DNA of 64,000 nucleotides from Candidatus Sericytochromatia bacterium (GTDB taxonomy: Bacteria > Cyanobacteriota > Sericytochromatia > S15B-MN24 > UBA4093). The stretch is taken from NCBI GenBank assembly GCA_036676455.1, contig JAKFCW010000101.1, positions 5,211-69,210 on the forward strand, in the 5' to 3' direction. Shown one piece after another: positions 30,869 to 62,632 of this stretch (its first letter is position 1; every line of letters starts with the position of its first letter). Position numbers and translations under genes: made by a program. The notes beneath the pieces are model-generated. The model was not told the origin of the DNA, did not search any database, and saw only the letters and a list, made by a program, of their open reading frames with translations.

Positions 30869-33800
30869 ATGATCGATATCAGGCTCCTGCCGGCTTTCCG
30901 GCGCTTCCTTGCGTTCGCGCTGATCATGACCCTCGCTCTGGCCTTGACGGCTTGTCCTCGTCCGCTCACGCCTCCCATGGGCCTGCCGGGCGACGGCTCG
31001 GTGATCCAGGCGGCCGATCACGTGGAAGGCCGCATCAGCTTCGGCTTCCGCCACACCCAGGCCGGCATCAAGGAAGACGTGGCTCCCGGCGCGACCGTCT
31101 CGCTGATCGAGCTGACCACGGGCAACACCGTGAGCACCACGCGCACGGACGCGGACGGCAAGTTCCTGCTCACCTACTCCAACGGCTTCAAGCCGAAGTC
31201 CGGAGATCTCTACTACTTCGAGGCGGTCAAGGGGCTTTCGGGTGGGACGAGCGCGCCCAACGCGGCCGGCTCCGACGCCGTGAGAGTCCGCACCATCGCG
31301 AGCTACTGGAGCGGCGGCTGGGTCACCCTGACCAGCGGCAACCCCGGGACGTCCATCCTGATCTCTCCGATGACCACCGCGCTCTCGGTGGTGGTGAGCC
31401 TGCGCCAGGCCACCTCCAAGAAGCTCGATCCCACGGCCCTCTTCGGGGCCATCAAGGCGGGGCGGCCCGCGGGCGGCTACCCGGACACCGTGCAGATGTC
31501 GAGCCCGGAGCTCGTCCAGATGGTTCAGCGGGCCTACGACCTGGTGGTCGGCTCCCTGGAGAAGGATCGCGACCCCCTGCGCTGGATCCAGCTGTCGAGC
31601 GCGGACCTGGACTTCAACACCGTCACGCTGCCGGAGCTTCCCTTCTCGATCTCGTACCTCGACCCGCCGAACGCGGTCGCCCTGGAGACCATCGATCTCG
31701 TGGGCAGCAACTTCGAGGGCGAGCCGGTGGTGGACTTCCAGGCCGACGGAGGCCAGCTGGCGCGCGCGACCGAACTCAGCGTGAGCTCGGACCTCACGCG
31801 GATCACGGTCCGGGTGCCCCCGACCGCCGTCACCGGCCATGTCCGCCTGAGCATCGGCGAGCGCACCCTCACCGGCCCCATCTTCCGGCTTGACACCCGG
31901 GACGGCCACTCCGTGGTGGACGCCCGGGGCAACCTCTACGCGGCGAACCGGGGTCTCGGCACCGTGGCCATCCTCGAGCCGGTGAGCGGCTCCGACCGCA
32001 CCAGCGTGCGCTCGCTGATCACCGATCTCGGAGAGCCCTCGGCGTTGACGTTCGGCCTCTCGGGCTTCGGCGCCCTGTTTGTCGCCAGCACCGGCGGAGT
32101 CGTCTGGAACGCCTCGCTCGACGTGCCACTGGACGCCGCCACCCCCATCTCCTTCCTCTCGAAGGCCTCTTATTCGACGGGCGGGGCCGCGGATCCGGGC
32201 GGCATGGCCTTCCGGAACAAGCCCGGCGATCCTGGCCACGGCGTCCTCTACGTGACGGACGCGGCCAACCACAAGCTTTACGCCGTGCGGGCGGGGGGCG
32301 GCGTCGCCCAGCTCGTGACGTTGACCGGGGTGGCGTTGTCCCAGCCCCGGGGGCTCTCGTTCGGGCCTGACGGCCGCCTCTACGTCGCCAACGCGGGCGC
32401 CAACAACGTCGTGGCCATCACCCTGACCTCGGATACGACCGGCACCTCCGAGGATTTCGTGAGCGGCTTCAGCATGCCCTGGGGCATCGCGTTCGACAAC
32501 CGGGGCAACTGCTACGTCAGCAACCACCGGGGCAACTCGGTCTACCGCGTGCCGGTGACCTCGGAGCCCGGCGTTACCCCGATCGCCTACGGAAACGTCG
32601 GCGCCTTCTCGAGCATTCCCAGCCCCGCGGGCCTGGATGCCGACGCATCGGGTTACCTCTACGTCGCCGATCGCTTGACCAACGGGGTCTACCGGATCAA
32701 CACCCTGGCGGAGAGCCAGCAGATCGCCTTCGGGATGAACGCGCCCACGTCGACCTGGGTGGATGCGGACGGCCTCTTCCTGCTCACGGATTCCGGCCGG
32801 CTGCTTCACTCGAACAAGCTCGACAGCACGGGCGTCCTCAAGGTCGTGGCCCAGGGGTTGCTCACGGCCAAGGGCCTGGTTCGGGACACCGACGGCAACT
32901 TCTACACCCATCAGGCGGCCCTCGACGCCATCACCCAGATTCGCCCGGACGGCTCCACCGTCCAGGTGGTGGTCGGCGTCAGCACGTCGGACGGCGCGGG
33001 CCTCTCCATCCGCGGAGACAAGCTCTACCTGCGTTCGAACACCAGCTTCGATCCGGGCGGCGACTCCTACGCGGTGCAAGGCGAGGTCCTGGAGTTCACC
33101 CTGGTGCGAGGCGGAGACGGCAAGGTCTCGCACGTCTCCGGTCCGACGGCACGCCTCCGGACCCCCGTCGACAAGCTCACGGGCCTGAGTGGCGGCGGCG
33201 GCACGCTCTACACCATGAACCCGCGAACCAAGACCTTCTTCGCGATGACGGTGGCCGGCACCACGAACCAGAGCGTCGGCCGCAGCTCGACCATGACGCG
33301 CCTGAAGTCGGATCCCTCCCTGGCGGATCCCAAGAACCTCCTGGTCGTGAACGGCAAGATCTGGGTGGCGGATTACGCCGGCGGAGGCAACGGCAGCATC
33401 CGGGTCTATGGGCTCGACGGGACCTTCGAGCAGGAGATCGCGGACATCGAGACCCCGACTCACCTGGCCTACGACGGGACCTACGTCTACGCCAACTCGT
33501 ACACGGGCGGCTACCTGCGGGCCTTCGAAACGACGGCGCCGTACGCCAAGGTCGCCGCGCGCGAGCGCACGGGCTTCAGTAACCCTCGCCCATTCGCCTT
33601 CGAGGGAACCACGCTCTACGTCAACGAGTGGGGCCCCAACCGGATCTCGAAGATCGACAACTACGCCGCGAGCACGGTGATCACTCCCCTGCTCACGCAG
33701 TCCGACCGCAATGATCTCGCGGTCATGGCGGGGACGATCTACGTCACCTCGGGGGCCAGCGTCTACCGGATCACCGATGACGGGAGCGGCTGGACCCAGG

Positions 33801-34378
33801 AGGGCGTGGCGTGGAAGGACTACGACCGGACCCTGAGCACCCTCAGCGTGATCGACGGGGCGCTCTATGCCGTCAGCGACAGCGCCCGGATCCATGACCT
33901 GCGGGAGTCCTCGTACCGGGCGATCGCCACCAGCCTCTACTACCAGTTCGGCCTGTACGGCTACTCGGGCATCCATGGGGATCCGTCGGGCTGGGGCCTC
34001 GTGAAGGGGACGGACCTCGTCTCGTACGGCCGGGGGGATTCGCACTCGACCTACGTCGTCGAGACGGCGCTCGACGGCTCCATGCATCGAACCTACCGGT
34101 TGATCGGCATCACGCTCGGAGGCATGGTGGATGACGGAGCGGGGACCGTTTATCTGACGCACGTCGGCCACGGCACGATCTACCGCCTGGCAGGCAACAG
34201 CTTCGCGCAGTTCGCCTCGGGGCCGTACGGCTCGCTGGATCGCATGTACGGCGGGATCTCGTATCACGGCGGCAAGATTTACCAGGCCATCTACACCAGG
34301 CACTGGATCGACCAGATCGACGCCACCAGCGGCGCCCGGACGACCCTGAAGCTGGGCCTGGTTACCCCGGAGTTGTAG
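30869..34378 (+). CDS. Giant lipoprotein, class A (A1): lipobox-CPRPL + CarboxypepD_reg-like + linker + IPT/TIG + about 800 aa of NHL-type beta-propeller repeats. About 1169 aa.
   Basis: ATG at 30869 lies 6 nt after GAGGAGG. The leader is MIDIRLLPAFRRFLAFALIMTLALALTAC-PRPL. Motifs are GATVSLIELTTGNTVSTTRTDADGKFLL, LYYFEAVKGL, RVRTIASY, MTTALSVVVSL, DRDPLRW, an IPT segment (ISYLDPPNAVALETIDLVGSNF...RITVRVPPTAVTGHVRL), then DGHSVV. NHL-like blades follow (LYVTDAANHKLYAV, LYVANAGANNVVAI, CYVSNHRGNSVYRV, LYVADRLTNGVYRIN). It ends LGLVTPEL. Confidence 0.85.
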   Translation: MIDIRLLPAFRRFLAFALIMTLALALTACPRPLTPPMGLPGDGSVIQAADHVEGRISFGFRHTQAGIKEDVAPGATVSLIELTTGNTVSTTRTDADGKFLLTYSNGFKPKSGDLYYFEAVKGLSGGTSAPNAAGSDAVRVRTIASYWSGGWVTLTSGNPGTSILISPMTTALSVVVSLRQATSKKLDPTALFGAIKAGRPAGGYPDTVQMSSPELVQMVQRAYDLVVGSLEKDRDPLRWIQLSSADLDFNTVTLPELPFSISYLDPPNAVALETIDLVGSNFEGEPVVDFQADGGQLARATELSVSSDLTRITVRVPPTAVTGHVRLSIGERTLTGPIFRLDTRDGHSVVDARGNLYAANRGLGTVAILEPVSGSDRTSVRSLITDLGEPSALTFGLSGFGALFVASTGGVVWNASLDVPLDAATPISFLSKASYSTGGAADPGGMAFRNKPGDPGHGVLYVTDAANHKLYAVRAGGGVAQLVTLTGVALSQPRGLSFGPDGRLYVANAGANNVVAITLTSDTTGTSEDFVSGFSMPWGIAFDNRGNCYVSNHRGNSVYRVPVTSEPGVTPIAYGNVGAFSSIPSPAGLDADASGYLYVADRLTNGVYRINTLAESQQIAFGMNAPTSTWVDADGLFLLTDSGRLLHSNKLDSTGVLKVVAQGLLTAKGLVRDTDGNFYTHQAALDAITQIRPDGSTVQVVVGVSTSDGAGLSIRGDKLYLRSNTSFDPGGDSYAVQGEVLEFTLVRGGDGKVSHVSGPTARLRTPVDKLTGLSGGGGTLYTMNPRTKTFFAMTVAGTTNQSVGRSSTMTRLKSDPSLADPKNLLVVNGKIWVADYAGGGNGSIRVYGLDGTFEQEIADIETPTHLAYDGTYVYANSYTGGYLRAFETTAPYAKVAARERTGFSNPRPFAFEGTTLYVNEWGPNRISKIDNYAASTVITPLLTQSDRNDLAVMAGTIYVTSGASVYRITDDGSGWTQEGVAWKDYDRTLSTLSVIDGALYAVSDSARIHDLRESSYRAIATSLYYQFGLYGYSGIHGDPSGWGLVKGTDLVSYGRGDSHSTYVVETALDGSMHRTYRLIGITLGGMVDDGAGTVYLTHVGHGTIYRLAGNSFAQFASGPYGSLDRMYGGISYHGGKIYQAIYTRHWIDQIDATSGARTTLKLGLVTPEL

Positions 34379-34388
34379 GAGGAGGCCC

Positions 34389-37300
34389 GTGGTGAGAACG
34401 CTTTTCGTGATGCTGCTCGCCCTGGTGCTGGCAAGCTGCAAGCTGCCTTCCCTCGTGCCGCCGCTTTCCTCGTCGGGAGTGGCGCCCGCGCGCCTGGCCA
34501 GCTCGACGCAGATCGCGGGCCGGATCGCCGCGTCGAGCGGAGTGCAGGCGAGCATCCTGGACATCGCCAAGGGCGCTTCGGTCGCCCTCATCGACGCGGC
34601 CACGGGCCTCACGCTCTCCACCACGGTCACCAATCCCGATGGCACCTTCTTCCTGCAGTTCGCAGAGGGCTTCGTCCCGGTGGACGGTCGGTCCTACATC
34701 CTCGAGGCGTTCAAGGGCATCAAGGGGGCGAATCCGGATTACAACCAGGCGGGCGCCGACACCATGCGCCTGCGGACGCTGCTCACCTACCGCGAGGCGG
34801 AGAAGGGCTGGGTGAGCCTGGCCAACGCCGTGCCGGGGCCGATCGACCTGACGATGTCGACCACGGCGGTTTCGGTGGCGATCGCCCACATGAGCCAGGC
34901 CGGCACTCCCGTGGATCCTACCCTCTTCATCGGCTGCTTGAACGGCGATGCCTACGACGAGGCTGCCCGCCCGCTCTCGCTGGTCGCCTTCACGGCCCTG
35001 CGCGCGGAGGTGGAGAAGGCCATCACCGAGGACCGCGACCCCCTTCACTACGTGGTCTACGACAGCAAGACCGGCTCGTTCCTGAGCTCGTTCGTGGCCT
35101 TCGCGGTCTCCGAGATCACTCCGAGCAGCGGCAACATCGGGACCCTGCTCGACATCCGGGGCGACGGCTTCACCTCCGGTCCGCTCGAGATGGTCACCAT
35201 CAACGGGACCCAGGCCGAGATCCAGCCCGGTACCCTCGCGGAGGACCGGGTGGTCGTCAAGGTCCTTCCTGGCACGCGCACGGGCCCCGTCTCGATCGTG
35301 ATCAACGGCGTCGTCCAGGCGGGCCCGACCTTCACCGTCACGATGACCGACGGCCACCGCTCGGTCCGCGGCGAGACCCTCTACGTGGCCAACCCCGCCT
35401 GGGGAACCGTGGCCGAGGTCAAGCCGAACGGCGAGATCCGGACCCTGAGATCCGGGCTTTCGACCCCGCGGCAGGCCGTCGTGGGCCCCGACGACCTGAT
35501 CTACGTCTCCAACGAGGGGGACAACACCGTCGTCCGCTTCGACGCGGCCGGGGGCGCCTTCGAGACCTTCTCGACGGCCGTCACCAAACCCTACGGGCTG
35601 GCCTTCGACGGCGCCGGCAAGCTGCATGTCTCGAGCCGGCAGGCCGCGGGCTCGGTGGTCAAGCTCGATGCCGCGGGCAATGCGGCCGCCACCGTCACGG
35701 GCCTCGCCCTGCCCGAGGCGATCGCCTTCAACGCGGGGGGCGACCTCTTCGTCGCCGAGGACGCCGGCTCCATCCGCCGCGTTCCCGCCGGAAGCCTCAC
35801 CCCGGAGGCCTACTCCTTCGTCGCGACCCCCATGGGCCTGGCGGTCGACTCGGCGGGTGACCTCTACGTCGCCAGCAACGACAACTCCGTCGTCTACCGG
35901 ATCGGGGCCAACCGGGCGCTCACGGTCTTCGCCATGCTCAACCGTCCCGGCGGTCTGACCTTCGATCCGAACGGCAACCTCTACGTGTCGGATACCGAGC
36001 GCAACCTCATCAACCGCGTCTCGCCCTCGGGCGACGTCCGGGTGCTCGCCTACGGCATCAGCATGCCGCGCGGCCTCGCGGTCGATCCGACGACCCACAA
36101 GGTCTACGTCTCCCTCAACCGCTCCAATGCCATCCTGGAAATCGACGGGGATGTCCTGCGGCCCTTCGTCACCGGCATCGCCAACCCGTTGACCCTCACC
36201 TACCGCGGGAGCGGCCTGTACATCGGCCAGCCCGAGATCGACACCATCTCCTTCGTCACCACGCCGGGAGGCCGCCTCTCCACCGTCGCGAGCGGCATCT
36301 CCGAGGCCAGTGGCGCGGATGCCTCCGCGGACGGCACGGTCTACGCCGGTCGCTGGGGACGCGAGGACGCATGGCAGCCCAACCGCAACCCCATCTACGA
36401 GGGCGGCTTCCAGAGCCTCGATCCGCTGGGCGTCCTCCAGCCCATCCGCTATCCCTACGTCCGAAAGACCCGCTTCCGGGCCATCGCGCCGGACGACACC
36501 GTCTACGAATCGAGCCACGACGAGCGGACGATCGCGAAGATCACCCCGCATGCCAACGGCTCGCGCACGGTCGAGCAGCTTTGGCGCTCGGACACCGAGC
36601 GCCCTCGCCACATCGTCCTGGACGCCTCCGGCAACCTCTACGTCTCCTTCCTCGATCAGGACAAGGTCGTGCGCTTCCGCCCGCCAGCCTACGCTCCGGA
36701 AGCGATCACGGGCTTCAGCCAGCCCTTCGGCCTGGCCTTGCACCCGGGGGCCGACGCCGTCAGCCTCGCGGACGACAAGCTCTACGTCTACAACCGCGGC
36801 AATGGGTTCCTCTCCTGGATCAACAACCCGTCGGTCGCCGCGACCAAGACCGCCGACTCGGCCGGCCCCTCGACCGGCATCGCCACCGCCGGGGACACCT
36901 ACGGGCTCGCGCTCGCCCTGAAGCCCGGAGACGACGGCGTCTACCTCGCGGCCCAGAGGAAGGTCGTGCGCTACGACATCGGCGACGGGCTCTTCGCGTC
37001 CTACCTCACCAAGGACCTACCGATCGCGATCACCGAGATCAAGGCCTGGCCCGACGGCACGCTCTTCGCTCGCCCGGAGAACGAGGACTTCGTGACCATC
37101 TCGCCCTCCCTGGTCGTGACCCAGTCGAGGCTGCGCAGCTATGGCGGAGCCAAGAACTGGAAGGACGACGTGGGGCGCACCCTCTTCCAGGGTGATACCT
37201 ATGGCCACCAGATCTGGAGAGGCTCCGAGACCTTCCTCGGCGCGCTCGGCCGGACCTTCGAGGTCGCGGTCGACGGCTCGAGCTACCTCTATCTCGCCGG

Positions 37301-37661
37301 GGCCGGGACCCGCGGGGACACGGGCACCGACTACGGCGGCCTGTTCCGCTACGAGCTCTCCGGGGCCTCTCCCAAGGAGCTCTACGTCCCGATCGGCAAG
37401 GGGCGGGTCTACTCTCTGGTCGTGGCTTCCGACCGCACGGTCTACGCCGGCTCCGGGGATCAGAAGATCTACCAGGTCGACCTGAACGGAGCCGTCACGC
37501 CCAAGTGGTCGCTAGGCACCCTCCCCTACGGCCTCGATCGCGATGGCGACACCCTCTGGGTGGTGGGAGAGAACAACCGCATCTTCTCGTTCGCGCGGAC
37601 CCTGTCCGAGGCGCTGACCCCGCCGTCCCAGACCTACGGCATCATGGAGCCCGTCTTCTGA
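34389..37661 (+). CDS. Giant lipoprotein, class B (B1): [15 protein letters not shown] + the same N-module + NHL-type beta-propeller repeats. 1090 aa.
   Basis: GTG at 34389 follows AGGAGGAGG, 10 nt after the A1 stop. The leader is [24 protein letters not shown]. Motifs are [60 protein letters not shown], an IPT segment ([22 protein letters not shown]...[17 protein letters not shown]), then DGHRS. Blades include [42 protein letters not shown] and [14 protein letters not shown]. It ends YGIMEPVF. Confidence 0.85.
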
Positions 37662-38032
37662 TGCGCATGCTCGTCACCCGCCTCGCCCTCGTCTCCCTCT
37701 GCCTGCTCCTCGGCTGCGCCGAGGATGACGGCTTGCTCGCGGGCCGCCCCTCCGCCCGGGCCTCGAGCCTCCCGGCTGACGGCTCGCCGACCCCCACCCC
37801 CACCCCGACCCCCACTTCGGACGCCACGGCGACGCCCACTCCGGCGCCGACACCGACTCCCACCCCGTCGCCTAGCCCCTCGCCCAGCCCGTCTGCCAGT
37901 CCGTCCCCCCCGCCGAGTCCCGCGGTGAATCCCACCCCGCCCGCGACTCCCGACCCGGAGCCCAGCGAGTTCCAGCCGGGCGAGGACGACGGGGGGATCG
38001 TCGGAGACGGCGACGTCGGCGGCGGGGCCTGA
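37661..38032 (+). CDS. Small Pro/Thr-rich lipoprotein (S1), 123 aa
   Basis: The ATG overlaps the B1 stop by 1 nt (TGATG). The leader is [38 protein letters not shown] / SPSPSPSP low-complexity region follows, then an acidic tail. Confidence 0.75.
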
Positions 38033-38192: not shown

Positions 38193-38339
38193 ATGCGAGC
38201 CATCGCGTCATCGGGTCTCGCCGGCCGCGTCCTGAGGGGGGTGCTGGCGGCTTGCCTGCTGGCATTCGTGACGGCGTGTCCCCGCCCCCTGACCCTCGAC
38301 ACGACGCCCACCCCCGGTGAGGAGCTGCTGCCGTTCTAG
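38193..38339 (+). pseudogene. Orphan 48-codon ORF encoding only a class-A-type signal peptide and lipobox (possible gene remnant or leader peptide)
   Basis: ATG at 38193 follows GGGAGGA. It translates as MRAISSGLAGRVLRGVLAACLLAFVTAC-PRPLTLDTTPTPGEELLPF-stop. It is below the ORF-track size cutoff and was read directly from the sequence. Repeat family 2 copy c follows immediately. Confidence 0.5.
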
Positions 38340-38353: not shown

Positions 38354-38397
38354 GTTGCTACCGGTCAGCTTCGCTGCCTTCCGCAACAGCTGCGGGC
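38354..38397. repeat. Intergenic repeat, family 2 (copy c)
   Basis: gttgctaccggtcagcttcgctgccttccgcaacagctgcgggc. Confidence 0.7.
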
Positions 38398-38430
38398 GCT
38401 TCTCCTGCGAGGTGTATTCCTCCTCTCGCT

Positions 38431-38540: not shown

Positions 38541-41500
38541 ATGCGAACTTTCGCCTCAGCGATCACTTCACGGCGAACCTGGCGGATCGTTCTAACGGTC
38601 TGCCTGCTGGCACTGCTGACGGCGTGTCCTCGCCCCCTCGTTCCCCCCGCCTCGACTCCCGGCCTCGGTGCTGATCCCAGCCTCTCGGCCACCGAGCAGG
38701 TCCTGGGCCAGGTGGACTTCGGCGGCCAAACAGTGCAGGCCGATATCTCGGACGACATCGCCCCGGGCGCCACCGTCGCTCTGATCGACGTGCAGACCGG
38801 GCAGACCCTGAGCACCACCCGCACGGACGAGAACGGCCGCTTCGTGCTCGTGTACTCCAACGGCTTCAAGCCGGTATCGGGAGGGCTCTACTACTTCGAG
38901 GCCCTCAAGGGCCTGAAGGGTTCCAGCGGGCTTCCCAACGCCGTAGGCGCGGACGTGGTTCGGGTCCGGACCATCGCCAGCTATCGCAACGGCGGCTGGG
39001 TCACCCTCACCAGCCGGACTGTCACCACCTCGATCCTCATCAACCCCATGACCACGGCCCTGTCGGTCATCGTCAGCCTGCGGCAGGGCTCCGTCGCTCC
39101 TCTCGACGTCAGCACCCTCTTCGGCACGATCAAAGCGGGCCGTCCGGAGGGGAGCTATCCCGACACGCTGGACCTGCCGGATCCCTCGCTGGTACCGCTG
39201 GTCCAGAGCGCCTACGACCTGGTCATCGACGCCCTTGCCAAGGAACGGGACCCCGTCCGCTGGATCACGCTCGATAGCGAGAACCCCAACGTCGTCCGCT
39301 TGCCGGACATCCCCTTCTCGATCAAGTTCCCGGATCCCGGCGTCCAGGAGATCGGCAAGGAACTCGATCTGGTCGGGGTCAACTTCGCCCCGGAAGCCGC
39401 ACAGAACCTGGTCTCTTTCCGCACCGACGGCGGCTGGATCCCCGCCACGGTCGTCTCGGTCCTGCCTGACCTGACCCGCCTCAAGGTCATCGTCCCCGAC
39501 GGCGCGGTCAACGGTCCCATTCGCCTGCAGATCGGCGACAAGATCCTGGTCTCGGATTTCAACTTCCAGCTCGCCGTCGTCGACGGCCACAGCGTCGTGC
39601 GCCCCTTCGGAGGCATTTCCTACCTCTTCGTCGCCAATGCCAGCCTCGGCACCATCGCCTACGTCTCCCCTTCGGGCGAGGCCACTCCGCTGATCAAGAA
39701 CCTCTCGAGCCCGCAGGCGCTGACCTTTGGCCCGGATGGATTCCTCTACGTCGCATGTGGCGGCACCACGAAGCGCGTCGTCCGCTTCGACGTCACCCTC
39801 GACGGCAACGGCAACCTCGTGCCGGGCATCCCAACCGATTACTCCGGCTTGCTTTCCAATCCCTCGGGCATGGCCTTTGATCTCTCCGACCCCAACCCCG
39901 ATCCCAGTCAGCGGCTCTATCCGCTTTACGTCGCGGACCGTGGCCTCAACCAGTTGCACCGGGTGGAGTGGACGGCGAACCGCACCGCGGTCCAGCCCAC
40001 CGCGCTCTTCCCCGTGGCAGGGCTCAATGAGCCGCGCGGCCTCTCCTTCGGTGCCGATGGCCGCCTCTACGTGGCCAACGCCGGGGCCAACAACGTCCTC
40101 GCCGTGTCCAAGCTGAGCGGCGAGAGCGAACCCTACCTCTCGGGTCTCGGCAAACCCTGGTCCGTGGCCTTCGACAGCAAGGGCAACTTCTACGTCAGCA
40201 GCAACACCGGCAACTCCATCTTCCGGCGCGACGCCGTCTCGGGAGTCCTCTCGGCCTTCGCGAGCGTCCCCAGCCCCGGTGGCCTGGACGCCGACGCCTC
40301 GGGTTACATCTACTGCGGAGACAACGTCAGCAACCAGATCTACCTGGTCAACTCGCTGGGCGAGACGCGCATGGTCGCCACGGGCATCAGTTCTCCGATG
40401 GGCATCCACGTCGACGCGGACGGCCTCTTCGTGGTGACCGGCAGCGGCCAGTTGCTCAAGGTCACCCACGACACCGGCTCTCTCTCCGTGCTCGCGGATG
40501 GCCTCACGGGCGCGGGCGACCTGGGCCGCGACTCCGCGGGCAACTTCTACGTCTTCCAGAAGAGCCTCGGTCGCATCTCCCGGATCACCCCCGCGGGGAT
40601 CATCAGCGTCTTCCTCAACGTCACGAACACCTCCGACATCTACGTCAAGGGCAACAAGCTCTACCTCAAGAAGACCAACACCCTACGCCCTGACGGCAAC
40701 TGGTCCGGCATGGGAGGAGTCGAGGTCCGGGATCTCTCCGACCGGGAAGTCGTGCAGGACTTGAAGGTCAGCTACATGCGCGATGCTATCGGCATGGCCT
40801 TCGATACCACTCCGGCCGGCGCCTACCGCGATTGGCTCTACGTGGCCAACCTCGACGATCGCTCGGTCGTGAGGCTCAAGCCGGAAGGCGACGGAGACCT
40901 CAAGCGGCACAAGGTCCATCGCTTCCTCGACCGCGTCAACGCCCCCGAGCTGGATCGGCCATGGGACGTCTGGGTGGATCCGGCCAGCGGCAACGTCTGG
41001 GTCTCGGATCAGGGCACGTCCACCGCCGATGATGGCCTTTACGTCTACAACTCAGCCGGTACCCGGATCGCGGACTATTCGGGCATCGTCGATCGCCCGC
41101 TGAAGTTCGGTTACGACGGCTCGCGCCTCTACCTCGCGAACTACGGAGGCCACGAGGTCATCCGGATCGACCCGACCAGCGGGGCCGAACTGGGGGCGAT
41201 CGCCGTCCCCTACCCCCGCTCGATCGCCTTCGACACGGCCAGCAACCGCATGTTCATCGGGACCTGGGACGGCTCGAGCGGCAGCCGCCCGATCAAGAAG
41301 GTCGACGCTTACGCCACCGCGCCGGTGATGGCGGACTACTACGACCTGCTGGCCTACGACCTGGTCTTCGAGAACGGCAACCTCTACACCGCCGCCGGCT
41401 CCTCCTACAAGATCTCCGCCGACCTGACCCGCCACGATCGCTTCATGTCCTCGCGATCCACCCTCTACGACTTCGCGCGCCGCGCCGACGGCAAGATCTA

Positions 41501-42035: not shown

Positions 42036-42044
42036 GAGGCCGCC

Positions 42045-54710: not shown

Positions 54711-55040
54711 ATGATGACGCGCAAACCTCAGTTCGTGATGTTGGGACTCGTGGCCTTGAGCCTCCTGATCGGCTGTGCGGCCGACGAGGATGGCTTGACC
54801 GGGGTGAGCGGCTCCGGGCGTCGCACCGCCTCGCCCAGCCCCCAGGTCACGGCCACGCCGACTCCCACTCCGAGCGCGGGCTCGGCGACGCCGACCCCGA
54901 AGCCTACCCTGACGCCGTGGCCCAGCCCGACGCCCACCCCCACGCCTTCGCTGGCTCCCCTGCCGGATCCGGTCGGAGGCCCCTCCACCGGCGACCTTGA
55001 ACCGCCACCCGACTCCACCGAGTCCATCGGGGTCGAGTGA
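54711..55040 (+). CDS. Small Pro/Thr-rich lipoprotein (S3), 109 aa
   Basis: The ATG directly abuts the B1' stop (TAGATG). The leader is MMTRKPQFVMLGLVALSLLIGC-AADEDGLTGV, followed by a PTPTP-rich region. Confidence 0.75.
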   Translation: MMTRKPQFVMLGLVALSLLIGCAADEDGLTGVSGSGRRTASPSPQVTATPTPTPSAGSATPTPKPTLTPWPSPTPTPTPSLAPLPDPVGGPSTGDLEPPPDSTESIGVE

Positions 55041-55077
55041 CGCGCATGCGTCGAGTTCCGTCCAGAAAGAGGTTCGC

Positions 55078-55269
55078 ATGAAATCCCTGTTTCCCATCCT
55101 CGGTCTGATCCTGGCGACCGCCATGGCCTTCGGGGCCGGGTGCGCGGACGATGGCGCACTCTTTGGCGTGGGGGGCAGCGGAGGCAAGAAAGCGTCCGCC
55201 GCTCCCCAGGCGAGCCCGGCCCCATCGGCCAGCCCGTCGGGCACCGGAGGCTCGATCGTCAACGATTGA
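55078..55269 (+). CDS. Very small lipoprotein (S'3), 63 aa
   Basis: AAAGAGG RBS. It translates as MKSLFPILGLILATAMAFGAGC-ADDGALFGVGGSGGKKASAAPQASPAPSASPSGTGGSIVND. Confidence 0.65.
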   Translation: MKSLFPILGLILATAMAFGAGCADDGALFGVGGSGGKKASAAPQASPAPSASPSGTGGSIVND

Positions 55270-55436: not shown

Positions 55437-58400
55437 TTGCTCGCAAGTGCACATGCTCGACGCTCGAGCCTCGCCATCGTCTACGTGCTGCTGGCCGCGC
55501 TGGTTGCGCTGCTGACGGCCTGTCCCCGTCCGCTGCTCGCTCCGACCGGAGCCGGGGGCGCGCAGGGCATGGCCCTGGATCCGGAGGCGGCCGTTTCCGG
55601 GCACGTGGATTTCGGCGCCCGAAAGACGCAAGCCACCATCAAGGACGACGTCGCCCCCGGGGCCACCGTCTCGCTCATCGAGGTCACCTCCGGCCAAACC
55701 CTCGCGACCACCTTCTCTCAGCCGGATGGTCGCTTCGTGCTACAGTTCTCGAATGGCTTCAAGCCCGTCTCCGGGGGGCTCTACTACTTCGAGGCCGTCA
55801 AGGGCCTCTCGGGGCCGACCGGCCAGCCCAACGCCGTGGGGGCGGATGCCGTCCGGGTCCGGACGATCGCGAGCTATCGGAGGGGCGGTTGGGTGACCCT
55901 CAGCACGAAAGGCGTCACCACCAGCATCTCGCTCTCCCCGATGACCACCGCCCTCTCGGTCGTCGTCAGTCTGCGCACCGGCACCGCCAAGAGCATCGAT
56001 CCCACCACGCTTTTCGGAGCGGTCCGGGCGGGCCAGGGTGAGGGCAGTTATCCCGATGCCCTCACCCTTCCGGACCCGACCCTCGTCCCACCCTCCATGG
56101 TCTACGAGGCGTACGATCTGGTGGTCGACGCGCTGGCCAAGGAGCGGGATCCGATCCGCTGGATCACCCTGGATAGCGCTGATTTGACGTCCTTGAGCTT
56201 GCCGACGATTCCCTTCTCGATCAAGTACCTCGTGCCGTCGATGCAGGAGGTCGGCCAGAAGCTGGACCTCGTGGGCGTCAACTTCGCCCAGAACCCGGCC
56301 GATAACAAGGTCTCCTTCACGACGGACGGCGGCTGGGTCCCGGTCACCGAGATCGGCCCCGTCTCGGCGGACCTGACGCGCCTGACCGTCACGGTGCCGA
56401 ACGGGGCCATCAGCGGCCCGGTTCGCCTCGAAATCGGCGGCAAGATGCTCTCCACGGACCCGGACAAGTCCTTCAGCCTCGCCGTCATCGACGGTCATAG
56501 CGTCGTACGGGTCCTGGACCGAAAAGCCTATCTCTTCGTGGCGAATCCGGCGAAGGGCACGATTTCCAAGGTCACCCCCGAGGGCGAGGTGGTTCCTTTC
56601 CTCTCGGGCTTGACGAGCCCTCAGGCCCTGACCTTCGGGCCGGATGGCTGCCTTTACGTCGCCTGCGGAGGGGCCAAGAACCAGATCGTGCGCATCACGC
56701 TCACGGCGGCCCTGACGGCTGCGAGCAGCGACGTCCGGGATTACTCGACCCCCCTCGTCAATCCGACGGGTCTGGCCTTCGACATGACCCAGGTCTCGAC
56801 GCAGGCCACGGTCGCCAGCGCTCCGTTGTACGCAGTGACGGGCGACGGCCAGCTTTATCGCTTGCCGTGGACCGGAGCGCTCGAGAACGTGGTGCCGGTC
56901 CTGGTTCCGCTCCAGGGGGCCAGCTTGAGCGGCCCCCGGGGGATCTCCTTCGGTTACAAGGACGACGACTGGCGCTTGTGGATTCCCAACGCGATCGCCA
57001 ACAACGTCGTGATCGTCGATCCGGCCACCGGTCAAGCCACCGTCGAGCTTTCCGGCATCGGGAAACCCTCCGGCGTCGCCTTCGACAGCAAAGGCAACCT
57101 CTACATCTCCAGCAACACCGGTAACTCCATCTTCAGAAGGGAAGCCGGCCAGAGCGAGCTGAAGCCCTTCTCGAGCGTACCCACTCCCGCGGGCCTGGAT
57201 GCCGACGCCTCGGGCTACATCTACTGCGCCGACAACGTCAGCAACCGCATCTACATGGTCAACTCCCAGGGTGAGAGCCGCATGCTCGCCACCGGCATCA
57301 GCTACCCGCTGGGGGTTCACGCCGACGCCGACGGCATCTTCGTCGTCACCGAGATCGGCCAGATCCTGAGAATCTCGCACGGCAGCGGCGTGGTCTCGCT
57401 CTTTGCCGACGGCCTCTCGAATCCCATGAGCCTGGGACGCGACGCGGACGGCAACTTCTACGTGCATCAGCCCGCCCTGAAGCAGATCACCCGCCTGGCC
57501 ACGGTCACGGATGCCTCCGGCCGACTCACCGGCATGATCGACTCCTACCTCCCCGTCTCCAACGTCCGCGACATCCACGTCGCGGGCCGCAAGCTCTATC
57601 TCCAGAAGACCCTCATCAAGAATCCCCAGGGCGAGGACGAGGGCCGAGGCGGCGTCGAGATCCGGGATCTCTCCGACTGGGGAACCACGGAGTCCCTCTA
57701 CACGGGCTTCATCCGGGACGGCGTCGGCATGAGCTTCGACAACTCCACGGGGCCCTTCCAGGGCGCCCTCTACCTCGCGAACTTCACCGACAACTCGATC
57801 GTGCGCATGGACGCAGACGCGGCCAACCCCCCGCGAGGCAAGATCCGGCCCTTTCTCAACGGCACCCAGAACCCCAAGCTGGTGCGCCCGAACGACGTCT
57901 GGGTTGACCCTGCCAACGGCAACGTCTGGGTTTCCATTCAAGGCATCAACACGGATACGGATGGCTTGATCGTCCTCGACTCGGCCGGCGTCGAGCTCAA
58001 GGACTACTCGACGCTGGTCAATCGTCCGCGCAAGCTCGGCTTCGACGAGACCCACCTCTACCTCACCAACGAGGGCGGAAACGAGGTCATCCGGATCGAC
58101 CGCACCACGGGCGCCAAGCTCGCCTCGTACGCGGTGCCCAAGCCGCTTTCGCTTGCCTTCGATACGGCCACCGACACCATGTACGTGGGCTCCAACGATG
58201 GCCAGATCTACCGGATCACCGGGTACCGCACCGCGACGCCCGCTGCGGCCGCTCCCTTCCATGCGCTCCATGCCTACGATCTGTATTTCCACACCGATAA
58301 CTACCTTTACGCGGCGAACTCCTCGACCTGGAAGATCGAGAAGGACGGGTCCACCCGCTTCGTCTACCGCCGGCATTACGGGCAGATCTACGACTTCGCG

Positions 58401-58937
58401 AAGCGCGCCTCGGACGGCAAGATCTTCCACCTCACGCGAGATGGCCGCTTCGATGCCTGGACCAACAACTATGTCACCTCCTCGGGGACCATGTTCACGG
58501 GAGGCAGCTCGGCCGTTCCGGACGGCAAGGGCAACTGGGTCTCGGTCTTCGAGACGATCTGCGGAGGCAAGAGCCTCATCGTCGGCGACCTGGCCGGCAC
58601 GTTCCAGCAGTATGCGGGCAGCCGGATCGGCATGACGCAGTGCTGGGTCACGGTCGGGTCGATGACCAGCGATGGCGACGGGAAGGTCTTCGTGGTGAGC
58701 AATCCGCAAGGTCGCCTGCATCGTTACGACGTGGCGACGGGAGTGCTCGAGCACCTGCCCAAAACCGGCGGAGCCTACAACGACGGGGACCAGGGGCTCG
58801 GCGTCGCGGCCTACAACGACAAGGTCTACGTGACGATGCGCAACCGGCACGTGGTCGACGTCTTCAACGCCGATGCGGCGGCGGACGGCGCCTTCATCGA
58901 GACGTTGAACGTCGGCCTGGTCAACCCCGAGCTTTGA
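55437..58937 (+). CDS. Giant lipoprotein, class A (A2', closest to A2). About 1166 aa.
   Basis: TTG at 55437 lies 5 nt after AAAGGAG. The leader is LLASAHARRSSLAIVYVLLAALVALLTAC-PRPLLAP. The track ORF start at 55140 would span the terminator hairpin. Motifs match A2 (LYYFEAVKGL, ERDPIRWITLDS, LAVIDGHSVVR, TSPQALTFGPDGCLYVACGG, IYCADNVSNRIYMVN). It ends VGLVNPEL. Confidence 0.8.
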   Translation: MLASAHARRSSLAIVYVLLAALVALLTACPRPLLAPTGAGGAQGMALDPEAAVSGHVDFGARKTQATIKDDVAPGATVSLIEVTSGQTLATTFSQPDGRFVLQFSNGFKPVSGGLYYFEAVKGLSGPTGQPNAVGADAVRVRTIASYRRGGWVTLSTKGVTTSISLSPMTTALSVVVSLRTGTAKSIDPTTLFGAVRAGQGEGSYPDALTLPDPTLVPPSMVYEAYDLVVDALAKERDPIRWITLDSADLTSLSLPTIPFSIKYLVPSMQEVGQKLDLVGVNFAQNPADNKVSFTTDGGWVPVTEIGPVSADLTRLTVTVPNGAISGPVRLEIGGKMLSTDPDKSFSLAVIDGHSVVRVLDRKAYLFVANPAKGTISKVTPEGEVVPFLSGLTSPQALTFGPDGCLYVACGGAKNQIVRITLTAALTAASSDVRDYSTPLVNPTGLAFDMTQVSTQATVASAPLYAVTGDGQLYRLPWTGALENVVPVLVPLQGASLSGPRGISFGYKDDDWRLWIPNAIANNVVIVDPATGQATVELSGIGKPSGVAFDSKGNLYISSNTGNSIFRREAGQSELKPFSSVPTPAGLDADASGYIYCADNVSNRIYMVNSQGESRMLATGISYPLGVHADADGIFVVTEIGQILRISHGSGVVSLFADGLSNPMSLGRDADGNFYVHQPALKQITRLATVTDASGRLTGMIDSYLPVSNVRDIHVAGRKLYLQKTLIKNPQGEDEGRGGVEIRDLSDWGTTESLYTGFIRDGVGMSFDNSTGPFQGALYLANFTDNSIVRMDADAANPPRGKIRPFLNGTQNPKLVRPNDVWVDPANGNVWVSIQGINTDTDGLIVLDSAGVELKDYSTLVNRPRKLGFDETHLYLTNEGGNEVIRIDRTTGAKLASYAVPKPLSLAFDTATDTMYVGSNDGQIYRITGYRTATPAAAAPFHALHAYDLYFHTDNYLYAANSSTWKIEKDGSTRFVYRRHYGQIYDFAKRASDGKIFHLTRDGRFDAWTNNYVTSSGTMFTGGSSAVPDGKGNWVSVFETICGGKSLIVGDLAGTFQQYAGSRIGMTQCWVTVGSMTSDGDGKVFVVSNPQGRLHRYDVATGVLEHLPKTGGAYNDGDQGLGVAAYNDKVYVTMRNRHVVDVFNADAAADGAFIETLNVGLVNPEL

Positions 58938-58941
58938 GGAG

Positions 58942-61900
58942 ATGACCATGCCCTTCATGCGCGTTTTGAACTTGCTCTTGGTCGTGCTGCTCGCGGGGTG
59001 CCGCCTGCCGTCGCTACTGCCGCATGCCGCTACCCCGCTTGACGGAACCTCCGCCGCCATGCCGGCGCATGTGCTGCAAGGGCGAATCGTGTCGCCGCCT
59101 CAGGTGCAGGCTTCCCTGACCGACATCGCCTCGTTCGCGAGCATCGCCCTGATCGACTCCGAGACGGGCTACACGGCCGCGACGACCGTCAGCGGCGCGA
59201 ACGGCACCTTTACCCTGAGGTTCGAGGCCGGCTTTTCGCCGGTCGATGGCCGTGCCTACTACCTCGATGCCATCAAGGGCATCAAGGAGACCGGGCCCGC
59301 CACCGACCCCAACCCCCTCTTCAATCAGGCGGGCGCTGATGCCGTGCGGCTGCGCACGGTCCTCTTTCATCAAAGCATGCCCGAAGGCTGGGTGAGCCTC
59401 AAGAACGCCGCGCCAGGCGCGATCTACATCAGCCGGGGCACCACGGCGATCGCCATGGCGGTCTTCCTCAAGCAGCAGTCCCAGGCCATCGCCTGGAGTT
59501 CCCTCATCGGGGCCCTGCACGTGGAGACCGACGCCTATACCGAGGTCCCGGCTTCACTGACCTCCACCGAGTTCCAGGATGCCTACGCCATCGTGGACGA
59601 GGCGATCACCCAGCATCGCGACCCGCTTCAGTTCCTCGCCTTCGACTCGGCCGTCGGCTTCGTCAACCTTTACAACGGCCACTCGGTCGATTCCCTGGAG
59701 CCCGATCACGGCGCGATCAACCAGCAGATCGTGATCAAGGGGGACGGCTTCCTGACCCCCGGCGACGTGACGGTCACCTTCAACACGACCGAGACGGTCC
59801 CCCCGACGGGAGCCAACCGCACCAAGGACAGGCTCGTGGTGACGGTTCCCCCGGGAGCCCGAACCGGGCCGGTGCTCGTCAAGATCGGCACGGTGACCCA
59901 GGCCGGCCCGGCTTTCACGGTGGATTCCTACGACGGGCATCGCGCCAAGCTGGGCGACACCCTTTACGTCGCGAACTTCGACCGCGCCAAGATCGTCAAG
60001 GTCTCGCCGGACGGCGTGGTCGAGGATTTCGCCGACGTGCCGGCCGGTCCCACGCAGCTTGCGATCTACACGGACGACTCCGATCCCCTTCAGCCGATCG
60101 AGCGCTTGTTCGTTGCCTGTGAGACCGCCGACCAGATCGTGACCCTCGACCTGCGCGAGCCCGCTCCGATCGCCCAACCCTTCGTGAACCTCACCAAGCC
60201 TGCAGGCCTGGCCTTCCTCGGAAACGTCCTCTACGTCTCCAGCAAGTCCCTCAAGACCGTCTCGCGCTTCAACCTCGACAAGTCCTCGGCAGGGGACGCG
60301 CTCACGGGCTTCGAGGCTCCAGCAGCCCTGGCGTTCGACTTCGAGAGCCAGCTCTTCGTCGCGGACGGCAACAAGGTCCTCCGGGTCAACCTGACGACGG
60401 GAACGTCGCTGGTCTGGATCTACCTCTCCAGCCCCCGGGGCCTGAGCGTCGATTCCGGCGGCACGCTCTACGTGGCCAACTACGACGACGGCGTGATTTA
60501 CCGGATCCTCGTCATCCCGCCCACCAACCGCCGGGCGGCCTACGTCTTCGCCCGCGTCCCCAATCCCACCGGCATCATGCTGGATGCCGCCGGGTACATG
60601 TTCGCCGCCTCGGAGACGCAGCATCAGATCTCGCGGATCTCTCCGCTGGGCGACATGAAGCCCTACGCCTACGGCATCGCGAACCCCCGCGGCCTGGCCG
60701 TGGATGGCGCCGGGAACCTCTACGTCTCCCTCAGCCAGTCGAACGCCGTCTTGAAGGTGGAGCAGAACGGATCCTATCGAACCCGGCCCTTCGTCACGGG
60801 GATCCCCAACCCGCATTCCATCACGTGGCGCAACGACAAGCTCTACCTCGCCCACCGGGATGCCGGCGTGGTCTCCTCGGCGACCGCCGCGGGGAGCATG
60901 AAGACGGAGGCCGTGGGGTTCACCATGCCCGGCGGCGCGGACGTGGCGGCCGACGGCACGATCTTCGCGGGGCGCTACGGCGCGAGCTGGCACCTGGAGG
61001 TCTGGCCGCCCGATCCCACCCATGTCCACTACAACCGGGGTGGCCTGGAGTCCTACGCCAACGGAGTGATTTCCCTCGACCGCGGCTTCGTCAGGACCAG
61101 CCTCAAGGGCCTGGTGGGCCTGGACGACGGCACACGCTACGTCCTGACCTCCCAGAACACCTTGCTGGAACTCAAGGCCACCAACGGGCCGTCGTCATCC
61201 TACCGGTATCGCCAGCTGGATGCCTACGCCCAGACCCCGCTCCGGATCGAGCGGGATGGAGCGGGCAACCATCTCTACGTGCTCCTGGAGGGCTCGAAGG
61301 ATGTCCTCCGTTACGAGAAACTAGGCGACTCCTGGGTCAAGTCCGTGCTCGACCTCGATCCCGCGCTCGACAAGACGGGTTTCACCAATCCGACGCGGAT
61401 GACCTTCGATGCGGCCGGTGACCGCCTCTATGTGCTCGATGGCGGAGTGCTGAAGCGCGTCGAGGGCGCCACGACCGCGACTCCGGCGCTTTCCACGAAG
61501 GCGCCCGGAGAGCTTTGGTCGGTCTCCTTGACCGGAGCGAACAGTATTTCCTACAAGAACTCCCGGATTTACGTGACCTATGGCAACACCTGGATTCGCT
61601 CTCTCGATTCGACCCTGGCTTCCCCGACCGTCTCGGACTACGCCCAGGGACCGGTCAACCTGACCGGGGTCATCGCCCATCCCGTGAGCGACTATCTTTT
61701 CGCTTACCAGGGTGAAGACGGCTACAAGGTCCCGCCCAGCGGGGTCTTCGAGTACCTCACCGGATACGGCGGCACGGCCTTCGCCTACACGCCGGACGGC
61801 ACCTTCATGCGGGACTACGTCAGTTACATGCCGCTTTATTTCGGCAAGACCACGCTGCCGGGCTTGGTCCAGACCCACGAAGTGGCGGTCGACGGTGACC

Positions 61901-62271
61901 GGGTCTACGTCGGAAGCTCGATGAACGATGAGTACACCGGGGTCTATCGCTTCGATCGCGATACCGGCGAGCAATGGCTCATCCGGGGTCTGGGATCCTC
62001 GGGGGCCAGCGCCATCGCCGTCGGGCCTGACCGGACGCTCTACGTGGGTGGGGGCAACGGCAAAATTTACCAGGTGGACGGCAACGGCGCGGCCTCGGCA
62101 GCCTGGGTGACGACTCCCGCCATTCCAAGCGATCGCCTCTACGGCCTTGACATCACGGCCAACGGCACCAAGCTCTGGGCGATCGGCAGTTCGCGCACCA
62201 TCTACGGCATCACGGTGGCCGGCAAGACCGTCGAGCTGGTCAAGCCGGGCCTCTCGTCGCCACGCTTCTAG
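58942..62271 (+). CDS. Giant lipoprotein, class B (B2', closest to B2). 1109 aa.
   Basis: The leader is MTMPFMRVLNLLLVVLLAGC-RLPSLLP. Motifs match B2 (AYYLDAIKGI, NQAGADAVRLRTVL, QHRDPLQF, VDSYDGHRAKLGDTLYVANFDRAKIVKV, YGIANPRGLAVDGAGNLYVSLSQSNAVLKV). It ends KPGLSSPRF. Confidence 0.85.
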   Translation: MTMPFMRVLNLLLVVLLAGCRLPSLLPHAATPLDGTSAAMPAHVLQGRIVSPPQVQASLTDIASFASIALIDSETGYTAATTVSGANGTFTLRFEAGFSPVDGRAYYLDAIKGIKETGPATDPNPLFNQAGADAVRLRTVLFHQSMPEGWVSLKNAAPGAIYISRGTTAIAMAVFLKQQSQAIAWSSLIGALHVETDAYTEVPASLTSTEFQDAYAIVDEAITQHRDPLQFLAFDSAVGFVNLYNGHSVDSLEPDHGAINQQIVIKGDGFLTPGDVTVTFNTTETVPPTGANRTKDRLVVTVPPGARTGPVLVKIGTVTQAGPAFTVDSYDGHRAKLGDTLYVANFDRAKIVKVSPDGVVEDFADVPAGPTQLAIYTDDSDPLQPIERLFVACETADQIVTLDLREPAPIAQPFVNLTKPAGLAFLGNVLYVSSKSLKTVSRFNLDKSSAGDALTGFEAPAALAFDFESQLFVADGNKVLRVNLTTGTSLVWIYLSSPRGLSVDSGGTLYVANYDDGVIYRILVIPPTNRRAAYVFARVPNPTGIMLDAAGYMFAASETQHQISRISPLGDMKPYAYGIANPRGLAVDGAGNLYVSLSQSNAVLKVEQNGSYRTRPFVTGIPNPHSITWRNDKLYLAHRDAGVVSSATAAGSMKTEAVGFTMPGGADVAADGTIFAGRYGASWHLEVWPPDPTHVHYNRGGLESYANGVISLDRGFVRTSLKGLVGLDDGTRYVLTSQNTLLELKATNGPSSSYRYRQLDAYAQTPLRIERDGAGNHLYVLLEGSKDVLRYEKLGDSWVKSVLDLDPALDKTGFTNPTRMTFDAAGDRLYVLDGGVLKRVEGATTATPALSTKAPGELWSVSLTGANSISYKNSRIYVTYGNTWIRSLDSTLASPTVSDYAQGPVNLTGVIAHPVSDYLFAYQGEDGYKVPPSGVFEYLTGYGGTAFAYTPDGTFMRDYVSYMPLYFGKTTLPGLVQTHEVAVDGDRVYVGSSMNDEYTGVYRFDRDTGEQWLIRGLGSSGASAIAVGPDRTLYVGGGNGKIYQVDGNGAASAAWVTTPAIPSDRLYGLDITANGTKLWAIGSSRTIYGITVAGKTVELVKPGLSSPRF

Positions 62272-62284
62272 CACGGGGGATCCC

Positions 62285-62632
62285 ATGAGACGAGACCTGT
62301 TGCCGACCCTTTTCATTGCCCTTGCGCTCGCCCTGGCGGCCGGCTGCGCCGGCGAGGACGACCTGCTCGGCGGAGCGGGAGCACGGAAGCCGGCTTCCGG
62401 CACGGCCGTGGAGGGTGCGGCGAGCGATACCGGGGCGGGATCGCAAACTCAGACCCCCACCCCCACCCCCACGCCGACTCCCTCGCCCACCGCGACCCCG
62501 ACGCCCGTGCCGACGCCGACGGAATATGCGACCATGCAGCCGCCGCCGGTCAACGATGAACCGGAGGGCCCCGAAGCGAGCCCGCCGCCGATCGATCAGA
62601 CCGAGCCGATCGAGGATGAGAATACCGTCTAG
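62285..62632 (+). CDS. Small Pro/Thr-rich lipoprotein (S4), 115 aa
   Basis: The leader is MRRDLLPTLFIALALALAAGC-AGEDDLLGG, followed by [22 protein letters not shown] and an acidic tail. Confidence 0.75.
   Translation: MRRDLLPTLFIALALALAAGCAGEDDLLGGAGARKPASGTAVEGAASDTGAGSQTQTPTPTPTPTPSPTATPTPVPTPTEYATMQPPPVNDEPEGPEASPPPIDQTEPIEDENTV

Follow-up and report, generated by a model that had tools for sequence, protein, structure and literature searches.

The fimU-pilVWXY1E genes of Pseudomonas form a module of a type IV filament that combines minor pilins with a large tip protein. PulA of Klebsiella, SslE of E. coli, and MtrC/OmcA of Shewanella are lipoproteins that type II secretion delivers to the cell surface, and tandem arrays of paralogous, variable surface lipoproteins are shaped by birth-and-death evolution and recombination. 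Myxococcus xanthus possesses three minor-pilin/PilY1 clusters (PMC9109919), and the Kil Tad pilus of Myxococcus uses four interchangeable minor-pilin "Tip" complexes (PMC12075869). We analysed a window of 64,000 nucleotides (the whole stretch presented above; G+C approximately 67%) from a Candidatus Sericytochromatia bacterium, which carries a series of large paralogous lipoprotein genes beside the genes of a secretion/pilus machine. An earlier note on this DNA had read positions 30869–62632 as the product of one ~15 kb segmental duplication, with a pilin operon at the junction of two double cassettes. Our results indicate that the region of 30.9–62.6 kb is probably the middle of an ancient array of "A-B-C(-D)" lipoprotein cassettes that extends beyond it, and that the unit of evolution is likely to be the single cassette, or a module of pilin genes plus a cassette, and not the 15 kb double cassette. 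This level of confidence refers to the evolutionary account. The gene map of 24–64 kb was obtained by listing of open reading frames, filtering by G+C at third codon positions, and translation:

24202–26802, minus strand: U866, carrying the N-terminal module of the family
26871–27965, minus strand: U364, a single NHL propeller with a C/D-type lipoprotein leader and a Pro/Thr linker
28074–30206, plus strand: U710, carrying the N-terminal module of the family
30203–30712, minus strand: U169
30869–34378, plus strand: A1, in cassette 1 (type 1; 30869–38032)
34389–37661, plus strand: B1, in cassette 1
37661–38032, plus strand: C1, a Pro/Thr-rich small lipoprotein, in cassette 1
38193–38338, plus strand: A-type stub of 48 codons, encoding MRAIASSGLAGRVLRGVLAACLLAFVTACPRPL...
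38541–42035, plus strand: A2, in cassette 2 (type 2; 38541–45971)
42045–45422, plus strand: B2, in cassette 2
45431–45760, plus strand: C2, a small lipoprotein, in cassette 2
45768–45971, plus strand: D2, a small lipoprotein, in cassette 2
45977–46067: inverted repeat where the D2 and p1 genes converge, likely a bidirectional terminator
46062–46646, minus strand: p1, pseudopilin-like
46646–47068, minus strand: p2, pseudopilin-like
47055–47537, minus strand: p3, pseudopilin-like
47739–51284, plus strand: A1', in cassette 1' (type 1; 47739–55269)
51297–54710, plus strand: B1', in cassette 1'
54711–55040, plus strand: C1', a small lipoprotein, in cassette 1'
55078–55269, plus strand: D1', a small lipoprotein, in cassette 1'
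55437–58937, plus strand: A2', in cassette 2' (type 2; 55437–62632)
58942–62271, plus strand: B2', in cassette 2'
62285–62632, plus strand: C2', a small lipoprotein, in cassette 2', followed by no D gene
62761–64000, plus strand: X, a further family member with the A-type lipobox CPRPL, running past the end of the window

The eight large open reading frames described in the earlier note were all present on the plus strand at the places given there, and the peptides and C-terminal motifs that it quoted were present as written. The genes inside each cassette are spaced by 0–13 nt or overlap, so that each A-B-C(-D) set looks like one operon, which is predicted to encode two lipoproteins of ~1,100–1,200 amino acids and one or two short Pro/Thr-rich lipoproteins. 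A promoter/terminator scan of 37.6–48 kb found no more sites than in shuffled sequence. The array comprises at least 18 lipoprotein genes. The three minus-strand genes do lie between the two units, as had been stated; the array also includes the small C/D lipoprotein genes and the A-type stub within this range, and the family continues outside it with U866, U364, and U710 upstream and X downstream. The N-terminus of X was 32–36% identical to those of the A and B proteins (tblastn). In other assemblies, X has a full length of 1080 amino acids and is followed by an NHL/TIG partner of 1071 amino acids (locus L016, 4477–8348), which indicates that the array contains at least a fifth pair beyond position 64000. 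In regards to the identity of the three minus-strand genes, which had been called minor pseudopilins, p2 was assigned by a match to Pfam N_methyl (E 7.8e-6; 25.7 bits against a cut-off of 21.2) together with a weak PilV match, and p1 and p3 have prepilin-like N-termini by eye only (KGMSLLE; a hydrophobic N-terminus without Glu5), with no match to PF07963/TIGR02532.

The alternation of two cassette types (1,2 | 1',2') is real, and the counterparts that had been paired by eye were also the closest in BLASTP comparisons. A1 was 42.7% identical to A1' against 36.6–38.5% to the type-2 A genes, A2 was 51.7% identical to A2' against 36.7–38.9%, B1 was 38.4% identical to B1' against 33–34%, and B2 was 49.6% identical to B2' against 33–34%. 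All non-counterpart pairs of the same family showed 33–39% identity, and A and B proteins were 26–32% identical over the first ~650 amino acids. Self-BLASTN of the window gave a main diagonal at an offset of ~+16.9 kb, with 68–71% identity over 0.7–2.3 kb. The example of ~80% nucleotide identity given in the earlier note was correct in its figure and misplaced by 3 bases: positions 31211–31340 were exactly 80.0% identical to 48084–48213, and 30% identical to 48081–48210, the range written there. With amino acid identities of 38–52%, nucleotide identities of 68–71%, and saturated synonymous sites, the duplications are old, as had been proposed.

To place these copies, we computed neighbour-joining trees from Kimura distances (100 bootstraps) for 43 A and 41 B sequences. 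Related loci were searched for with the four A proteins, because an alignment of all eight proteins lacked a sufficiently conserved stretch. In 5.8 billion protein clusters there were only ~37 full-length relatives for A and ~32 for B, every one of them from a metagenome or a metagenome-assembled genome (MAG); the named ones are Candidatus Sericytochromatia, and their source annotations are only PknD, YvrE, or NHL-repeat proteins. In a species-level genome collection, relatives occurred in Candidatus Sericytochromatia MAGs and in one MAG labelled Stenomitos. The array is, as judged from these sequence matches, specific to Candidatus Sericytochromatia. The trees gave the same pairings as BLASTP (A1/A1', A2/A2', B1/B1', and B2/B2'), and the A and B trees were congruent, which indicates that A-B pairs were duplicated together. 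The type-2 superclade (100% in both trees) consists of three lineages, A2/B2, A2'/B2', and A2x/B2x; each of the A lineages is supported at 100%, as are the B2 and B2x clades, and B2' forms a lone branch that lies outside (B2,B2x) at 96%. Within the type-1 superclade (96% in the A tree and 100% in the B tree), A1/B1 form one clade (100%), and A1'/B1' fall into a broad group together with many other lineages. All genes of the window except B2' have orthologs elsewhere at 55–94% identity, which indicates that the duplications predate the divergence of the sampled lineages. For cassette 1, the orthologs showed 83% identity in L008, 58–62% in L005 and L007, and 86% nucleotide identity in a contig from JGI (here, the JGI contig).

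These pairings are also what a single ~15 kb duplication of a double cassette (A1B1C-A2B2C) would leave behind, with the pilin operon at its junction and with a later A2/A2x duplication and losses. The reciprocal closest paralogs, their identical order in two blocks of similar length, and the congruence of the A and B trees are all in its favour. The distances between the copies argue against it. Over the columns of A plus B that are common to all four copies, the Kimura distance was 1.00 between cassettes 1 and 1' and 0.71 between cassettes 2 and 2'; the bootstrap 95% interval of the difference was 0.21–0.37, which excludes 0, and the direction was the same in A alone and in B alone. The mean distance of each copy to the other type was nearly equal (1.18–1.25), which corresponds to equal overall rates. 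If change was roughly clock-like, these values make the type-1 split the older of the two. The D genes also break the symmetry of the proposed unit: D follows A2B2C2 and A1'B1'C1', and not cassettes 1 or 2', and its positions are the same in the JGI contig, L007, and L001. A history with two copies of each type is not supported, given the three well-supported type-2 and the many type-1 lineages. The small C proteins were uninformative on this question, being of low complexity and 36–46% identical in all pairs.

We compared the cassette orders in the related loci, which were as follows:

JGI contig: A1, B1 C / A2x B2x C / A2 B2 C D / pilins / A1' B1' C D / X (A1 was put on the same contig by cluster look-up)
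L007: A2 B2 C D / HupE / A1 B1 C / A2x B2x
L001 (LC028): machine / A1'-type cassette / another type-1 cassette
L005 and L012: lone A-B-C cassettes amid housekeeping genes

The order 1,2 | 1',2' was found in none of the relatives examined. The stub at 38193–38338 matches the first ~36 codons of A2x in the JGI contig and in L008, where A2x lies right after C1, and the JGI contig contains a complete A2x-B2x-Cx cassette (~7 kb) between the equivalents of window positions 38312 and 38404. These results indicate that the lineage of the window lost a type-2 cassette between cassettes 1 and 2, so that the earlier order was 1, 2x, 2 | 1' and the alternation is not ancestral. A single duplication would require more steps, among them those needed to set an opposite-strand pilin operon between tandem copies. 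Taking the unequal distances, the D genes, the stub, and the additional lineages together, we regard the one-event origin put forward in the earlier note as unlikely.

The preferred account, duplication by single cassettes or pilin-cassette modules, runs as follows. The cassette duplications probably differ in age and all long predate the divergence of the sampled lineages. Cassettes have later been deleted (the stub), become present in some genomes and absent from others (A2'B2'C2' and a 7.8 kb upstream segment), or been replaced as a block by divergent alleles (the pilins with A1'B1'C1'D1'). The presence of two old cassette types, with two of each in the window, gives the 1,2 | 1',2' pattern. 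Some points weigh against this account. The neighbour-joining trees were built on Kimura distances near saturation, the age gap between the two splits could reflect a change of rate over time, and the B topology (B2',(B2x,B2)) fits an ancient double-cassette event in which A2x arose as a later copy.

A copy of a ~50 nt repeat lies at the junction of the A2x deletion. The repeat has the core GGTCAGCTTCGCT..C.TC, with three exact core matches in the window; when up to 3 mismatches were allowed, 6 matches were found against 1.3 expected. The three copies are:

8252–8304, plus strand: upstream of a Cache-domain gene
16329–16381, minus strand: upstream of the pseudopilin/secretin operon
38354–38402, plus strand: at the A2x deletion junction, upstream of A2

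The repeat is absent from the A2 site of the JGI contig, and the alignment with L008 breaks exactly around the copy at 16329–16381; its behaviour is thus that of a small element that is mobile or prone to insertion, or of a shared regulatory site. When the whole window was scanned against Rfam at gathering thresholds, no match was obtained; the repeat is not a known RNA family. A second, intergenic family of REP-like palindromes (…GTCATTCCCGCGAAAGCGGGAATCCAG…) was observed at 3603–3677, 6857–6921, 10463–10544, and 22997–23052. The last of these lies just past the stop codon of the ATPase gene of the machine, at the left border of the 7.8 kb segment lacking a counterpart in L008.

The earlier note had also raised the possibility that the tandem arrangement is an assembly artefact, in which one or two true cassettes were expanded. 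We found nothing in favour of this reading. The copies are only 68–71% identical at the nucleotide level, which is too unlike for an assembler to collapse or expand. In addition, independent Logan assemblies from several sequencing runs reproduced all of the junctions at ~100% identity (U710-U169-A1-B1; D2-pilins-A1'-B1'; B1'-C1'-D1'-A2'-B2'; and A2'-B2'-C2'-X-next gene), and one Logan contig covering the cassette 1' region was 99.9% identical. An artefact can practically be dismissed.

Ongoing gene conversion or diversifying selection in this genome, which would keep the copies alike or drive them apart, had been offered as an explanation for their divergence. The N-terminal ~200 amino acids are 65–73% identical among all four A proteins and carry no type signal, and the best nucleotide match in that part is the one between A1' and A2' (73.9% over 498 nt); both points count in favour of such a process. 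However, the identity at four-fold sites in conserved codons was 0.45–0.62 in the N-terminal part, as elsewhere, and 0.39–0.64 when all paralog pairs and regions were considered, none of which stood out. Exact nucleotide matches among the eight genes were at most 26 nt long. Trees of the conserved N-terminal third alone recovered cross-genome ortholog clades at 89–100%, which indicates that the N-terminal similarity reflects constraint and not homogenisation. None of these three approaches (four-fold identity, longest exact matches, and region-wise trees) gave a sign of gene conversion. In regards to selection, comparison of A2, B2, and D2 with their orthologs in the JGI contig gave synonymous divergences (dS) of 0.19–0.24 and ratios of nonsynonymous to synonymous divergence (dN/dS) of 0.14–0.15, with dN/dS of 0.07–0.36 along A2 and at most 0.54 along B2. 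These values indicate functional genes under purifying selection. We therefore consider either process very unlikely as the driver of the divergence between the copies.

The comparison with the JGI contig also revealed turnover between close relatives. At the nucleotide level, B1-C1 was 86% identical, A2-B2-C2-D2 92.3%, and X 88.5%; p1 and p2 had no nucleotide match, p3 with the 5' two-thirds of A1' was 77.7% identical, and the rest of A1' and B1' were 66–69% identical. The pilins of the JGI contig occupy the same position and orientation as in the window. In codon alignments, the amino acid identity was 39–42% for p1-p3 (36–42% by BLASTP; dS 0.86–1.1), 66% for A1' (63% by BLASTP; dS 0.68), 62% for B1' (59% by BLASTP; dS 0.86), 57% for C1' (dS 1.33), and 77% for D1' (dS 1.0). 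The dS values of this segment are three to six times those of its flanks (0.7–1.3 against about 0.2), which indicates that the common ancestor of the pilins and A1'B1'C1'D1' is much older than that of their surroundings and that the difference is not simply fast evolution. By these divergences, the segment has been exchanged as a block or holds non-orthologous alleles. A2'B2'C2' (~55.3–62.7 kb) is absent from the JGI contig, where X directly follows D1'. The 7.8 kb segment of 22995–30791 (U866, U364, U710, and U169) is absent from L008, where the alignment jumps from 22993 to 30792 and A1 begins ~190 nt after the ATPase gene. Within A1' itself, the comparison with the JGI allele (L011, 19128–22589) is mosaic, with ~78% nucleotide identity over the 5' ~2.1 kb and ~66% over the remainder, and the A1' clade was recovered in the C-terminal tree only. 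These two observations suggest recombination inside the A1' gene group.

This mode of change resembles that of the tandem arrays of variable surface lipoproteins, in that the locus is multigene, whole units are gained, lost, or replaced by other alleles between close relatives, and a conserved anchoring part is combined with variable distal parts. It differs from them in that the copies are ancient and under purifying selection, with no sign of conversion-driven or phase-variable switching.

By inspection with the pattern [LVI][ASTVI][GAS]C, an N-terminal signal peptide ending in a lipobox was found in 18/18 family and small proteins (A, B, C, D, X, U710, U866, and U364) and not in U169 or the pilins. 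The lipobox regions fall into three forms:

A proteins and X: ...LTAC/AGC-PRPL
B proteins: ...[ST][SG]C-[KR]LPSL
C and D proteins and U364: ...GC-A-[ED]-[ED]-D-G-L

In the last form, the lipid-modified Cys stands in an acidic motif (C-A-[ED]-[ED]-D-G-L) that is followed by Pro/Thr-rich low-complexity sequence. This motif is reminiscent of the acidic signals for surface export in lipoproteins of other phyla. The C-terminal ends are strictly conserved as well, with G-[LV]-V-x-P-E-L in all A proteins (e.g. 34355–34375) and G-x-[MS]-x-P-[VR]-F in all B proteins (e.g. 37635–37658); they may form the strand that closes the last propeller, or serve as a sorting signal.

Pfam NHL (PF01436) scored above its gathering cut-off of 20 in 7/8 A and B proteins (23.9–55.8 bits); A2' matched only related propeller families, with no NHL match above the cut-off. 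AlphaFold2 models built from family alignments (mean pLDDT, the model confidence score, of 85.1 for A2 and 82.3 for B1) showed an N-terminal β-sandwich, a helical segment, an IPT/TIG domain, and three six-bladed propellers. The sandwich is transthyretin-like and gave a weak match to Pfam CarboxypepD_reg. A Foldseek search of the PDB returned multi-propeller ectodomains (LRP2, LRP4, LRP6, and ROS1/Sevenless) at 8–17% identity, the best matches being the LRP2/LRP6 ectodomains. The A and B proteins share tandem six-bladed propellers with these NHL/YWTD propeller proteins and differ from LRP2/LRP6 by their bacterial lipoprotein context, the added N-terminal sandwich-helix-TIG module, and an identity of 11–17%. 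U866, U710, and X carry the ~320-residue N-terminal module of A and B; U866 and U710 are 31–36% identical to A and B over the first ~320 amino acids (BLASTP) and end in different, non-propeller C-terminal parts, as domain-shuffled members of the family. Pfam TIG and NHL matches were obtained in the segment that carries U866, U364, and U710. A common N-terminal module with differing C-terminal parts suggests an anchoring or docking module that carries variable heads.

The machine beside the array was annotated with Pfam/NCBIfam as follows:

13159–15054, minus strand: secretin
14972–15556, minus strand: pseudopilin
15563–16102, minus strand: pseudopilin
16405–17946, plus strand: GspF/PilC-like protein
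18393–20051, plus strand: PilM-PilN fusion
20048–21211, plus strand: T2SSC-like protein
21201–22994, plus strand: PilB/GspE-like ATPase with an MshE-type cyclic di-GMP (c-di-GMP) motif

The region of 13159–22994 is collinear with L008 (78–84% nucleotide identity) and L001 (80%). The ATPase scored 539 bits as PilB and 534 bits as GspE, both under the cut-offs, and GspF and GspD were the best matches for their genes, likewise under the cut-off. The machine is predicted to be type II secretion/type IV pilus-like (a type IV filament), and these scores do not assign it to canonical type II secretion or to type IVa pili. The MshE-type motif of the ATPase scored above its cut-off (55.5 against 38), which indicates that the machine is probably controlled by c-di-GMP. 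Literature searches on type IV pili and secretion systems in Sericytochromatia yielded no relevant work. Two neighbouring SET-domain proteins (228 and 201 amino acids) are encoded at 556–1844 of the window; such proteins are unusual in bacteria, and these have no relation to the array.

In three genomes, a cassette follows the ATPase gene: A1 in the window and in L008, and, directly, an A1'-type cassette in L001. We tentatively propose, as a possibility short of probable, that the machine may export or display the A-D lipoproteins. In that case, A, B, C, and D would be lipid-anchored, surface-displayed binding modules, the three embedded pseudopilins would be a matching tip or recognition set, and the variable propeller heads would bind different targets, so that the variety and the swapping of cassettes would change what the cell surface binds or exposes. 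The joint replacement of the pilins with the adjacent cassette was counted as support for a link between the two. Against this proposal, the functional inference draws on gene neighbourhood, signal sequences, and fold only, and the lone cassettes lie amid housekeeping genes, far from any such machine, so that the linkage is not obligatory. The propellers, moreover, resemble enzyme families (SGL/lactonase and Vgb lyase) as much as binding domains.

The main functional rival takes this last resemblance at face value: A and B would be periplasm-facing lipoprotein enzymes, i.e. NHL propellers of the lactonase or lyase type, and their place beside the machine would be incidental. The Pfam similarities to SGL, Vgb_lyase, and Lactonase agree with such a role, as do the lone cassettes; most of those matches, however, were under the curated cut-offs, apart from NHL and SGL, and the best structural matches were multi-propeller receptor ectodomains. 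An incidental position also accords poorly with the cassette after the ATPase gene in three genomes despite their differing cassette content, and with pseudopilins that are embedded in the array and replaced jointly with the neighbouring cassette. We consider an enzymatic role improbable.

We compared the locus under the export/display proposal with the described systems. Like the minor-pilin/PilY1 modules, it combines alternative sets of large β-propeller proteins with small pilin-like genes that lie close to a type IV filament machine or serve it, and the pilin set and the neighbouring large-protein cassette vary together between strains. Unlike those modules, A and B are lipoproteins with six-bladed propellers of the NHL/YWTD type, they lack the Pfam PilY1/PilC domain and the vWA domain, and the pilins are divergently transcribed from the cassette, with one pilin set for at least five cassettes. 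No A or B protein had a Pfam match to Neisseria_PilC or vWA at E≤0.01. PilY1 was absent among the top 50 PDB fold matches listed. As the A and B proteins do not belong to the PilY1 family by this test, the resemblance is functional only. Like PulA, SslE, and MtrC/OmcA, the array consists of large lipobox proteins encoded beside a machine of the secretin/GspE/GspF type; those proteins are single enzymes or cytochromes, whereas here arrays of paired triple-propeller paralogs occur with small Pro/Thr-rich partners. The array of machine-linked cassettes varies known themes in a form that is uncharacterised and restricted to one lineage. A bolder possibility, which we hold to be doubtful, is that the cassettes may constitute a previously undescribed class of accessory module for a type IV filament machine, in which lipid-anchored triple-propeller pairs would be displayed by a c-di-GMP-responsive machine, the pseudopilin trio would be the cognate tip or recognition complex, each genome would hold several alternative modules, and strains would swap blocks. 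If true, non-photosynthetic relatives of cyanobacteria would have a functional analogue of the interchangeable PilY1/minor-pilin tips that is assembled from unrelated parts.

As a duplication, the locus is ordinary: an old tandem paralog array that evolves by birth and death. Candidatus Sericytochromatia, an uncultured sister lineage of the photosynthetic cyanobacteria, is the only group in which the family has been seen, and near relatives swap whole modules, the three pseudopilins among them. Should the array be functionally linked to the machine, it would reveal how these bacteria alter what their surface exposes or binds, and type IV filament systems would gain a new kind of cargo or partner in its lipoproteins.

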